Shown: positions 24,781 through 48,497 of the stretch, in pieces
How the letters are laid out: each line of letters starts with the position of its first letter
Position numbering within the stretch: position 1 is the stretch's first letter
IMG/VR virus record: IMGVR_UViG_3300045988_168162
Coordinates: 82,781 to 146,780 of that record
Length of the DNA stretch: 64,000 bases
Reading direction: 5' to 3' (one strand)
Source of the DNA: a virus
The notes under the pieces: model-generated
Databases searched by the model: none
Told to the model about the DNA's origin: nothing
Seen by the model: only the letters and a program-made list of their open reading frames with translations
Position numbers and translations under genes: made by a program

Positions 24781-24809
24781 TTGACATACAACTAAAGGTG
24801 TGGTATTAT
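24781..24809 (+). promoter_or_regulatory. Sigma-70-type promoter
   Basis: TTGACA, 17-nt spacer, TATTAT. Confidence 0.5.
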
Positions 24810-24815
24810 AATTGC

Positions 24816-24950
24816 GCCGAAAAGTTAGGAATGTTGCAGCCACAGAATTAAAGCCACCTTTTCTTTAAACTGTAGGTCATTTATCTCCAATTCCTTGTCA
24901 GTACCCTTTCCGGTATAGTCGCTGGGTTTGTCCGCCTGGCGGCTTTTTTG
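24816..24950 (+). ncRNA. Candidate small RNA (about 135 nt)
   Basis: Bounded by the promoter at 24781 and the terminator at 24917-24950 (AGTCGCTGGG / CCTGGCGGCT plus T6). No SD-led ORF. Pyrimidine-rich CCACCTTTTC and ATCTCC motifs are present. Confidence 0.3.
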
Positions 24951-24993
24951 TTTATAGGTATAATTTTGAGTTATCGGATTGTAAATATTTTTC

Positions 24994-25045
24994 TTGACAT
25001 GAGGTTCAATTGAACTTATAATATAGAAAAGAGTTCAGATGAACT
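24994..25045 (+). promoter_or_regulatory. Consensus promoter with two palindromic operators
   Basis: TTGACA (24994), 17-nt spacer, TATAAT (25017). GTTCAATTGAAC (25004-25015) sits in the spacer and AGTTCAGATGAACT (25032-25045) lies downstream. Confidence 0.7.
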
Positions 25046-33223: not shown

Positions 33224-33260
33224 GCCCTAGGGATCGTGTTTCTGGGGCTTTTTGTTTTTT
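33224..33260 (+). terminator. Rho-independent terminator
   Basis: GCCCTAG / CTGGGGC stem followed by TTTTTGTTTTTTT. Confidence 0.6.
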
Positions 33261-33275
33261 TATGGAGAAGAACCC

Positions 33276-33539
33276 ATGAATAGTGTTGATGTAGAAGCGC
33301 TGCGGGAATTGGCAGCGCAGATCAAGCGGCACTGTGAGCGGCTGATGATGCGGGCAAGTTTTGACCGAACATCGGTTGGGCAGGTGACTGCAGTAGGGGA
33401 GGATGGTACTTATACGGTAGCAGCCTTTGGCGGCAGTTATGTTTTGCCATACAAGGAAAAACTGACTGTTGGTGCCGTTGTGCGTGTGAAGGTGCCCCAA
33501 AATAACTGGAAAGAAATTTACATTGAGTCGGTTGCATAA
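33276..33539 (+). CDS. Hypothetical small tail-module protein
   Basis: ATG 33276 follows GGAGAAG. 87 aa. Confidence 0.5.
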   Translation: MNSVDVEALRELAAQIKRHCERLMMRASFDRTSVGQVTAVGEDGTYTVAAFGGSYVLPYKEKLTVGAVVRVKVPQNNWKEIYIESVA

Positions 33540-33578
33540 AAAAATACGCAGCTGTGATAAACACTGGCCGCGTTACTA

Positions 33579-33607
33579 TTGACAATACTTGAATTTGATT
33601 TTATAAT
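33579..33607 (+). promoter_or_regulatory. Consensus promoter of the antitoxin-like sRNA
   Basis: TTGACA, 17-nt spacer, TATAAT. Confidence 0.75.
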
Positions 33608-33613
33608 AATAAT

Positions 33614-33723
33614 AGAGCTAAGGAGCCGAGACATAGACGGCCACCTCAGTTCGATATGTACATAATGGCTATACCATCATAGCACAAGACCGTTCTGGTT
33701 GCGACAGGGCGGTCTTACTTTTT
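33614..33723 (+). ncRNA. Candidate type I antitoxin sRNA
   Basis: Runs from the promoter to a 12-bp terminator (AAGACCGTTCTG / CAGGGCGGTCTT plus T-run). No coding potential. Antisense to the 3' end of the toxin gene. Confidence 0.55.
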
Positions 33724-33819
33724 ATCACGAAAAAACGCGATAACGGCTATGATAGTTCCAATGCCGGAGAAAAGACAACCAAGGATAGAAGTCCAATCAG
33801 AGACAGAAAGATCTTTCAT
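33715..33819 (-). CDS. Type I toxin-like 34-aa hydrophobic peptide
   Basis: MKDLSVSDWTSILGCLFSGIGTIIAVIAFFRDKK. AGGAGGTGA SD. About 158-nt 5' UTR. Not in the ORF track. Confidence 0.65.
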   Translation of the reverse strand: MKDLSVSDWTSILGCLFSGIGTIIAVIAFFRDKK

Positions 33820-33983
33820 TGCACATCACCTCCTGATAAATAAATTTACCGGAAGGCAAAAGTAGTGCTGGCTCCACATTTACCTTACTGGTATATGGGA
33901 GATGACCGCCTATACGTCTATGGAGGACGGGAATGATCGATGAAGTTCCCAGGTTCGACGCTCGGCTCCTTAACTCTGTTATT

Positions 33984-34012
33984 ATTATAGTATCTATGTA
34001 AAATATTGTCAA
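33984..34012 (-). promoter_or_regulatory. Consensus promoter of the toxin mRNA
   Basis: On the minus strand: TTGACA, 17-nt spacer, TATAAT. Confidence 0.75.
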
Positions 34013-34029
34013 TTGAATACTGACTTTAT

Positions 34030-34070
34030 GCCGCTTAGTCCTGCTGTGGGACTGGGCGGCTTTTTGTTTT
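34030..34070 (+). terminator. Rho-independent terminator
   Basis: 12-bp stem GCCGCTTAGTCC / GGACTGGGCGGC followed by TTTTTGTTTTTTTT. Confidence 0.7.
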
Positions 34071-34095: not shown

Positions 34096-35244
34096 GTGGC
34101 ACAACCGGTGCTTTATACAATCCCATCGTTTGACGCCGCTGTTGGCGCAGACATTCCATTTGCCTATGATGGCGAGCAGGTATTTGGCAATGAGCTTGTA
34201 ATCATGGACAACTCAACAGGTGCGCAGGTTTACAGTAAAAAGACAGACTGGATGAAACTGGTGCATACGGTAGCCGGTGGCAGCGGCCTGCAAAATGGCA
34301 AATATTATGCCTGCAAGGTGCGTGTTTACAACAAGGCCGGAGAGGCCAGTAGCTGGTCGAGCTTGCGGAGCTTTTATTGTTTTACGACCCCGGTTTTTAG
34401 TTTTACCAATATGGTAAATGACCAGATCCTGGAGAACAGTGAATACACCCTGCAGATGAGCTACACCCAGAAAGAGAACGAACCGCTAAATACTTATAAT
34501 GTCATTCTTTACAATTCCAGCCGTGTGCAGCTGAGTAAGAGTGCGACTATGTACGGTACTTCGACGCTGGAATACGGACTGCATGACCTGGCAGATGCGA
34601 CCCAGTATTATGTGCGCTGCCTTGGCGAGACCTTAAATGGCATGGTGGCTGATACAGGGTATATCCCGTTCAGCGTAAAATATATCGTGCCTACGTATTG
34701 GACCTATGTTGATTTAACAAATAACAAAGATGACGGCACTGTGCGCATATCCTCGAACATACGAACGATCGAGGGCAAATTTACCGGCAGCGGCGACCCT
34801 ACTTATATCGACAATGCCAAGGTTGACCTGCGCAAGAATGGAGACCGCGTGATTTTCCATGAGGGCTTTGCTTTGCAGGGAAACTTTACCGTGAAGATGC
34901 TTGGCAGCGATTTTGGGCAGAGCGAAACGATCCTTGAAATGGTGGACGGTAATGATACGACATTGACTGTGAAATATATAAAAGGCTGGTTTGCCGAGGG
35001 CAGCTATATGGCGAAGGGGCAAAGTGCAACTAATTCACTGTTGGGAATACAAGTACCGTATCTTGATTTGCGTTGTGCTGTAAAGGGGGATGTAATTGCT
35101 TATGCGATGCAATCTGAGCCAATGGGAGAACCAGGAAGTGGGCAGGAATACCTGATTAAGGTACAAAAGAACGGTGATGTGTTTAATATTACTACGCAGG
35201 TGGTAAATACTGCGGACTATGTAACAACAGCAGAGGAGGTGTGA
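34096..35244 (+). CDS. Putative distal tail protein with FN3-like domains
   Basis: GTG start after AGAGGTGATGG. First gene after the tape measure. 382 aa. Confidence 0.5.
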   Translation: MAQPVLYTIPSFDAAVGADIPFAYDGEQVFGNELVIMDNSTGAQVYSKKTDWMKLVHTVAGGSGLQNGKYYACKVRVYNKAGEASSWSSLRSFYCFTTPVFSFTNMVNDQILENSEYTLQMSYTQKENEPLNTYNVILYNSSRVQLSKSATMYGTSTLEYGLHDLADATQYYVRCLGETLNGMVADTGYIPFSVKYIVPTYWTYVDLTNNKDDGTVRISSNIRTIEGKFTGSGDPTYIDNAKVDLRKNGDRVIFHEGFALQGNFTVKMLGSDFGQSETILEMVDGNDTTLTVKYIKGWFAEGSYMAKGQSATNSLLGIQVPYLDLRCAVKGDVIAYAMQSEPMGEPGSGQEYLIKVQKNGDVFNITTQVVNTADYVTTAEEV

Positions 35245-48099: not shown

Positions 48100-48132
48100 T
48101 GGTTTGACCGATTTTTAAGATGTGATAGGGTC

Positions 48133-48171
48133 GCCCTACTGCTGGACTGCGGTGGGGCGGCTTTATTTTTT
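48133..48171 (+). terminator. Rho-independent terminator
   Basis: GCCCTACTGC / GCGGTGGGGC stem followed by a T-run. Confidence 0.7.
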
Positions 48172-48194
48172 GATTTTTTCGATAGGAGATAGTA

Positions 48195-48497
48195 ATGGCG
48201 AAATTATCTTTGTGCGAGATCAATCAATCTCAGCTGAATGATACTCCTGTCGTAGATGGGCAGCTTGTCTGCTGCCTGGACACGGGAAACACCTACCGCG
48301 ACACGGCGAGTGGGCGAATCCAGATCGGGCATGACATCGAGTTTGTAAGCGAGCTGCCTTTGGCCCCGATCAACGGGAAGATTTATTGTGTCGGTTACGG
48401 TGAGCTATGGCTTTATAACGGCGATTGGATGCGGCTGAATAAGGCCCCAGAGCGAATTACGAATACCGAAATCGATAACTTATTCAAAGACGAATAG
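48195..48497 (+). CDS. Short fibre-related protein
   Basis: 100 aa. The C-terminal ITNTEIDNLF motif recurs at the end of the next gene. Confidence 0.45.
   Translation: MAKLSLCEINQSQLNDTPVVDGQLVCCLDTGNTYRDTASGRIQIGHDIEFVSELPLAPINGKIYCVGYGELWLYNGDWMRLNKAPERITNTEIDNLFKDE

Follow-up and report, generated by a model that had tools for sequence, protein, structure and literature searches.

Toxin–antitoxin (TA) systems of type I are badly under-annotated, because both of their genes are tiny. Among those carried by phages or related elements, bsrG/SR4 and yonT/SR6 of the Bacillus subtilis prophage SPbeta and txpA/RatA of the skin element encode small toxins with a single transmembrane (TM) segment and a basic C-terminus. 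In the par system of Enterococcus faecalis pAD1 (Fst, RNA I/RNA II), convergent transcripts meet at a shared terminator hairpin, and a 5' structure sequesters the toxin RNA end. The hok/sok system of plasmid R1 represents a Gram-negative family; its toxin mRNA is closed by 5'-3' pairing with the Shine-Dalgarno sequence (SD) sequestered, the 5' leader is the site where Sok pairs, and coupling to mok governs translation.

For systems of the bsrG/SR4 type, a convergent antisense RNA with a 3' overlap of about 100 nt has been described, acting through RNase III decay and translational inhibition (PMC3834814, PMC5848175). In bsrG/SR4 itself, the 3' overlap is combined with SD occlusion, and the antitoxin both promotes decay and reinforces this occlusion (PMC3834814). 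Convergent type I systems with toxins of 34–47 aa, CD0977.1-RCd11 among them, are carried by phiCD630-1 and phiCD630-2 and stabilise C. difficile prophages (PMC7699646).

The phage cassette analyzed here displays, at the sequence level, the generic features of such systems, i.e., a small membrane-type peptide gene with a GGAGG SD and an antisense RNA encoded in cis, driven by a promoter of its own and provided with a terminator that overlaps the toxin stop codon. In a preliminary description of this DNA, the peptide was called Fst/Ldr-like. The likeness holds as a general architecture but not as family membership: Fst fails in both profile and repeat geometry, and Ldr has no Pfam, NCBIfam or Rfam match. 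No match to Fst/par was obtained in Pfam at E ≤ 1 or in Rfam; none to Ldr/Rdl, Hok/Sok, TisB or Ibs/Sib was obtained in Pfam, NCBIfam or Rfam; and for BsrG/SR4, TxpA/RatA and YonT/SR6 no family match was found, the profile search returning only the cassette family's own members. Sub-threshold Rfam matches (trpB, ctRNA_pT181, RsaF and others) were rejected, as all of them were far below the gathering score. Judged by sequence, the family belongs to no described family. With a probability of roughly two in three, we regard the cassette as a mobile, moron-like unit of a new type I TA family of the 3'-overlapping (bsrG/SR4-like) kind, carried by probably temperate phages of gut Firmicutes.

Genomic setting, promoters and peptide gene

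The window, that is, the whole stretch of 64,000 nucleotides that was analyzed, forms the right-hand part (64 kb) of an IMG/VR virus record that is complete, measures 146,780 bp and carries direct terminal repeats. The whole phage genome has a G+C content of 47% and encodes two tyrosine recombinases, which makes lysogeny plausible. Among cultured phages, the closest are those infecting Enterocloster bolteae (baseplate hub protein, ~32% identity), and the consensus sigma-A promoters and GGAGG ribosome-binding sites fit a Firmicutes host. The carriers are large phages, probably temperate and of gut Firmicutes. No second copy of the cassette was found in the same genome, and the phage GenBank collection gave no DNA match. 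A match in an Anaerolineaceae metagenome-assembled genome, lying antisense inside a 182-aa ORF and covering only residues 7–25, was rejected as spurious, so no host was obtained from prophage copies.

The cassette, an exchangeable segment of about 0.5 kb, extends from approximately 33538 to 34025 between two tail genes. It had been placed between the tape-measure and distal tail genes; the tail-gene setting is correct, but the tape-measure gene is not the direct neighbor, as a 95-aa ORF (33252-33539) lies between it and the cassette. On the other side, the cassette is followed by a tail protein gene (34096-35244), which served as the query for fetching relatives. Its right boundary is formed by an intergenic + strand terminator at 34030-34070 (14-bp stem 34030-34060, −24 kcal/mol) ahead of this tail gene. 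This terminator had been proposed to insulate the module. It is indeed present on the + strand, but it is native rather than cassette-specific, being found also in cassette-free relatives, and homologous terminators were observed in the relatives L007–L010 whatever the cargo. Strong + strand terminators at 33224-33248 and 34030-34060 separate consecutive genes of the tail region (tape-measure gene, 95-aa ORF, tail gene), so the late operon must use antitermination read-through or re-initiation.

Two perfect promoters facing each other, as reported previously, match TTGACA-17-TATAAT at 12 of 12 positions: that of the small RNA (sRNA), the putative antitoxin, at 33579-33607 on the + strand, and that of the putative toxin at 33984-34012 on the − strand. 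Across both strands of the 146,780 bp, only three perfect promoters of this type occur, and two of them are the cassette pair, convergent and 434 bp apart; chance can thus be excluded for this pair. The features reported previously were all present at the positions given, and to a degree that chance would not produce. The third was located at 24994 (+), with a near-perfect one at 24781, both inside an accessory island interrupting the tape-measure gene (window 24781-25030). Among the relatives described below, the −35 and −10 elements of the sRNA promoter were invariant in 34/34 variants, and the toxin promoter retained its −35 element with a −10 element of either TATAAT or TACAAT. The antitoxin promoter of a TA system is usually stronger than the toxin promoter; that the two are equally perfect in the window counts against the TA reading.

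The promoters and 5' ends form an inverted repeat, previously given as 27/29 with near-identical 5' ends of the two RNAs. The repeat and the near-identity stand, and its extent was corrected: the longer repeat comprises 53 nt at 83% (33578-33630 / 33961-34013). The exact 12-mer TAAGGAGCCGAG is contained in both arms. The predicted toxin mRNA begins with the box AGAGUUAAGGAGCCGAG (33961-33977, − strand), which has the same sense as the 5' box of the sRNA (33614-33630).

The 34-aa single-TM peptide on the − strand was found where it had been described. Its 34-codon ORF, MKDLSVSDWTSILGCLFSGIGTIIAVIAFFRDKK, occupies 33715-33819 (−) and is the putative toxin gene, intact with the same start in 33/34 variants. 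In the peptide, the N-terminus is acidic and is followed by some 21 hydrophobic residues, corresponding to one TM helix, and by a basic RDKK tail. No family match to it was obtained in Pfam, PADLOC or NCBIfam, and a literature search for its motifs returned no match. The NCBIfam model "CCC motif membrane protein" reached 17.8 bits, the cut-off being 65, and was discarded as a generic TM match.

Predicted RNAs, their ends and the occlusion of the SD

The sRNA was predicted from promoter, fold and terminator to be about 111 nt long (33614-33724, + strand). This agrees with the non-coding RNA of about 110 nt proposed previously, and no conserved ORF is present in it; an 8-codon ORF (ATG at 33655) was rejected, having no SD and not being conserved in clade 3. 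The sRNA comprises a 5' stem-loop (SL1), formed between the 5' box GAGCUAAGGAGCCG and CGGCCACCUCAGUU; a small hairpin in the middle; and, at 33686-33716, the terminator hairpin followed by a U-tract. Its minimum free energy was −37 kcal/mol (z = −4.4), and in the consensus fold of 21 distinct variants all 28 pairs were kept, three of them with compensatory changes. A CACCUC motif, considered able to pair with the toxin SD, is present at 33642-33647 (+). Only its CCUC part is conserved, and it is paired inside SL1 in 21/21 variants. Because CCUC is thus buried in the sRNA's own conserved 5' stem-loop, an attack in trans on the toxin SD appears doubtful.

The 12-bp + strand terminator reported to overlap the toxin stop codon corresponds to the central hairpin at 33686-33716. 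This hairpin can form on both strands, being a strong terminator for the sRNA (−18.0 kcal/mol on the + strand) and a weak one for the toxin strand (−11.1 kcal/mol on the − strand). It is weaker on the toxin strand because two conserved G.U pairs turn into C.A mismatches. It also has no proper U-tract on that strand, the tail reading GUGCUAUGAUGG.

A distal terminator for the toxin strand, missed in the preliminary description, was located at 33538-33573 (−), where the hairpin ACGCGGC..GCUGCGU (33546-33573) is followed by U7 (33538-33544); it marks the left edge of the cassette. The hairpin folds at −13.3 kcal/mol, has a U-tract on the − strand only, and its U-run overlaps the stop codon of the 95-aa ORF. 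The terminator is absent from two phages in which the site is empty (L005 and L006). Compensatory changes between clades were observed in it (413:440, AU<->GC; 416:437, CG<->UA), and clade 3 carries an unrelated, longer hairpin (−24.4 kcal/mol) with a U-run at the same position. Since the central hairpin is weak on the − strand and a dedicated distal terminator is conserved in position, a substantial share of toxin transcription probably reads through to the latter, which would yield an mRNA of about 440 nt. The complementarity of the two RNAs at their 3' ends, suggested earlier, was also predicted here, with an extent that depends on this read-through: about 39 nt without it, and the full 111-nt sRNA if the toxin mRNA reads through.

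The leader of the toxin mRNA is 158 nt long, in agreement with the earlier estimate. The SD of the peptide ORF, GGAGGTGA (GGAGGUGA), lies at 33826-33833 (−) and is predicted to be paired. The sequence GGAGGUGAUG was identical in 33/34 variants, the exception (L039) carrying the weakened form GGGGGUG. Whether the short transcript, the long one or the sRNA-bound form was modelled, the SD was predicted to be paired (P > 0.97). The probability of its being unpaired was 0.002. Among 42 other genes of the same phage with a GGAGG SD, the median was 0.22, and only 7% had values of 0.03 or below.

The partner of the SD differs from that originally proposed, an anti-SD at 33898-33905 (−), written UCAUCUCC (TCATCTCC on the − strand). 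That sequence is present, but it is a minor alternative partner (~20%); the main predicted partner is the local anti-SD UUGCCUUC at 33852-33859 (−), with pairing of about 75–85% (pair probabilities 0.5–0.9). Helix 4 of the consensus structure was 99.6% paired across the 34 variants. In the long transcript, UCAUCUCC pairs with the 3' UTR via helices 2 and 3, which were 97–99% paired over the 34 variants.

In the model of the long mRNA, the inverted repeat forms a 5'-3' helix (z = −6.9). This helix 1, between the 5' box and the 3' UTR, comprises 12 pairs, three of which are changed on both sides, and was 99.5% paired in the 34-sequence consensus; the box reads GAGYUAAGGAGCC in clades 1–2 and GAACUAAGGCACC in clade 3. 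A second helix between leader and 3' UTR, formed from the leader block AUAGGCGGUCA..CUC, was also present in this consensus. Leader position 10 is G or A in two clades, uncompensated. The covariation in helix 1 stems from a single clade split and is suggestive, not decisive, since a need of each RNA for an identical 5' box in a stem-loop of its own would explain it equally well; the covariation evidence overall rests on three clades.

We tentatively propose that the inverted repeat works at the RNA level, with the leader and the antitoxin competing for the same 3' UTR segment of the ~440-nt toxin mRNA. Two sequence blocks are common to leader and antitoxin, and in the 3' UTR the leader would pair with their antisense copy. 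Such competing folds might possibly amount to a hok-like fold-back lock fused to a 3' overlap of the bsrG/SR4 kind. To our knowledge, no type I system of phages or Gram-positive bacteria has been reported to combine fold-back and 3' overlap. If true, it would represent a new regulatory layout for type I systems and a compact, portable RNA switch.

Relatives of the cassette and its exchangeable slots

When the peptide and the architecture were searched for elsewhere, 34 distinct module variants were obtained, falling into three clades and two insertion sites. All 34 sequences were aligned for the conservation counts. Peptide-based scans yielded 11 metagenome loci, and the profile search of 1.84 billion representative proteins returned only three true members, including one at the same site (P0002, locus L030) and one in a different gene context (P0003, locus L031). 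Two further proteins, P0004 and P0005, were rejected as partial matches inside 395- and 995-aa proteins. A search with the conserved leader motif revealed 39 IMG/VR contigs, which form the third clade with the 35-aa peptide MPDLSFVDTIVIIGVVFTGVQTVVAVITFFRGNKK. In at least 37 IMG/VR contigs, the clade-3 cassette occupies a second cargo slot, homologous to 48102-48195 of the window, which lies between two fibre-region genes and is empty here, holding a terminator only. The orientation is the same at both insertion sites, with the sRNA running along the structural genes and the peptide gene against them. With one exception, the 34 variants retained an intact ORF of 34–35 codons preceded by a strong SD, together with the sRNA and the two promoters.

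The relatives fetched with the downstream tail protein were compared at the same intergenic site, and six states were observed. The same module was present in L004 with 98% identity, and L010 carried the module at 80% together with an extra promoter/RNA unit. In L005 and L006, whose tail protein is 99% identical, the site is empty, comprising 68 bp with the terminator only. Only a remnant of the sRNA promoter was found in L009. Of the module, L007 contains the sRNA alone. Behind it lie a promoter, a structured RNA and an ORF of 163 aa (L007:3433-3924) that matches the CptIN type III toxin model at 4e-15, below the curated cut-off. L008 contains, at L008:3210-3925, a complete type III system with promoter, RNA, terminator and a 162-aa ToxN/AbiQ protein (Pfam 5.8e-43, PADLOC 1.3e-31). 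Because the same site is either empty or filled with other TA systems in relatives, the segment from 33538 to about 34025 is exchangeable cargo. A type III TA system (endoribonuclease toxin with repeat RNA) was sought as well; the window's cassette contains no such ORF, and at this site one occurs only in L007 and L008. In both L007 and L008, the RNA upstream of the toxin was free of repeats according to Tandem Repeats Finder.

The orphan sRNA of L007 has lost its U-tract and shows one stem mismatch, which is consistent with decay after the loss of the peptide gene. The RNA at L007:3259-3376 (+), located between a consensus promoter and the CptIN-like ORF, matched Rfam RF02920, "Fusobacteriales-1 RNA"; its 94 bits exceed the gathering score of 52. 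A literature search under that name returned no paper, and the motif may represent the antitoxin RNA of CptIN-type systems. The extra unit of L010 (L010:3745-3950) adjoins the cassette and consists of an RNA of about 130 nt, which has a terminator of its own, and of a short hydrophobic ORF (MNKDHFIFMRWFFVYISNF...). Its promoter (TTGACAttnGCGGC..ATCGCATATAAT) is of the type seen in the L007 and L008 type III loci, and the unit may be either a remnant or a further small-toxin unit.

The peptide could be a non-toxic small membrane protein made from the prophage, engaged, for example, in superinfection exclusion or in modulation of a host membrane protein, whose level is tuned by the sRNA, the whole being an antisense-regulated moron. 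The conserved ORF, SD and sRNA would fit this explanation equally well, no toxin family was matched, and variants with altered C-termini persist. Nevertheless, we consider it unlikely. Extreme sequestration of the SD, an antisense RNA driven by a consensus promoter, and flanking terminators are the usual hallmarks of harmful products, and bona fide TA systems occupy the same slot in sister phages. The decaying orphan sRNA of L007 points in the same direction, as expected if the sRNA is needed only beside the peptide gene.

A holin-like or antiholin-like factor related to lysis, with its expression timed by the antisense RNA and late read-through transcription, would agree with a single-TM peptide bearing a charged C-terminus, and with a gene that runs antisense to the late structural operon at both sites, so that late transcription could modulate it. 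This explanation is very improbable, as the cassette is dispensable, close relatives having an empty site, and is interchangeable with Abi-type TA systems; moreover, no lysis module lies nearby, and host-type consensus promoters are typical of morons expressed in the lysogen.

The conservation of the ORF itself was evaluated across the 34 variants. Although these are 50–80% diverged, the start, frame and stop were kept in 33/34 of them, with an encoded length of 34–35 codons; in the exceptional variant, 1 nt is missing close to the stop, which lengthens the ORF to 47 codons. The peptide substitutions were conservative (I/V/L/F, A/G, S/T), with hydrophobicity preserved. Second codon positions varied least, accounting for 3/24 variable sites in clades 1–2 and for 13 overall, compared to 21 and 19 for the other two positions. 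The dN/dS ratio was 0.13–0.14 within clades and only 0.4–0.7 between clades, both coming from a very short ORF (102 nt). The coding part was no more conserved than the RNA parts of the cassette. Together with the between-clade ratio, the altered C-termini noted below and the lack of a toxin-family match, this weighs against the TA reading.

It is hardly credible that the cassette is an RNA-only element, in which two convergent non-coding RNAs insulate or regulate the tail operon and the ORF is incidental: RNA parts as conserved as the ORF and a strong RNA structure with covariation would suit it, but a strong SD is retained together with start, frame and stop in 33/34 of these diverged variants, and the ORF shows only hydrophobicity-preserving changes and a between-clade indel of 3 nt, in frame, whereas the non-coding parts contain many 1–2-nt indels.

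Variation was also noted at the end of the ORF. The A-run before the stop (AAUAAAAAGUAA) was off by one base in L031, P0010, P0011 and P0015, producing a C-terminal extension (…SKTALSQPERF…) that reads across the terminator hairpin; other C-termini were truncated. These shifts could reflect a slippage-prone sequence, inactivated copies or an assembly error.

Proposed mechanism and comparison with known systems

The reading as a type I TA-like module, put forward in the preliminary description, is supported by the conserved ORF, the conserved convergent sRNA, the sequestered SD and the swappable slot. Under this reading, a consensus sigma-A promoter would drive the − strand mRNA for a 34-residue, single-pass putative toxin, with the SD locked in a local hairpin, and a second consensus promoter would drive the convergent putative antitoxin sRNA of about 111 nt, ending at the hairpin over the toxin stop codon. 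The weak central hairpin on the toxin strand would allow much of the transcription to pass the whole sRNA gene and reach the distal terminator, giving the ~440-nt mRNA. Duplex formation, with decay of the RNase III type as in bsrG/SR4, would likely target the 3' UTR of this mRNA, which is fully complementary to the sRNA. Pairing of the sRNA with the 3' region of the toxin mRNA would cover 111 nt with read-through and about 39 nt otherwise, and would perhaps reinforce the occlusion of the SD. Through the inverted repeat, the 3' UTR of the toxin mRNA could in turn pair with its own 5' end, a fold-back that would keep the mRNA silent and make it more stable.

In a lysogen, both host-type promoters would be expected to fire, with the SD hairpin keeping the toxin mRNA translationally inert. 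Should the element be lost, or an invading phage shut off transcription, the toxin mRNA, as the more stable of the two RNAs, would outlast the sRNA. The biological role is likely to be prophage retention and/or defence of the abortive-infection type, and the company of ToxN/AbiQ and CptIN-like systems at the same site suggests that a role in defence is equally possible.

The family is found in no database, yet it is present in dozens of large gut-phage genomes. The exchangeable slots in the tail region point to phage-borne hot spots for TA and defence cargo. Such hot spots probably influence how prophages are retained and how phages compete with one another in the gut.

When the cassette is compared with the systems described above, its likeness to bsrG/SR4, yonT/SR6 and txpA/RatA consists in being phage-borne, in a small single-TM peptide with a basic C-terminus, in a convergent antisense RNA, and in an occluded SD. 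In contrast, it shares no sequence, Pfam or Rfam similarity with them. Its predicted toxin 3' UTR spans the entire antitoxin gene including the promoter, its two RNAs share a 5' box through the inverted repeat, and it owns a separate distal terminator, all of which set it apart from the bsrG/SR4 group.

The systems of phiCD630-1 and phiCD630-2 resemble it in peptide size, hydrophobic segment, basic C-terminus, convergent layout and occurrence in genomes of gut Firmicutes phages. However, no homology to them was detectable by the profile search of the 1.84 billion representative proteins. The polarity of the cassette peptide also differs, with the acidic N-terminus first and the TM helix second, and inverted-repeat 5' boxes are not described in those systems.

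With par, the cassette has in common the convergent layout, the central terminator hairpin, a 5' structure sequestering the toxin RNA end, and a peptide of about 33 aa beginning MKDL. The repeats are arranged differently, since the direct repeats of par give complementary 5' ends, whereas the inverted repeat of the cassette gives identical ones. As in hok/sok, 5'-3' pairing is predicted to close the full-length toxin mRNA, with the SD sequestered; unlike in hok/sok, the peptides being unrelated, the 3' partner of the predicted fold-back is an antisense copy of the antitoxin's own 5' end.
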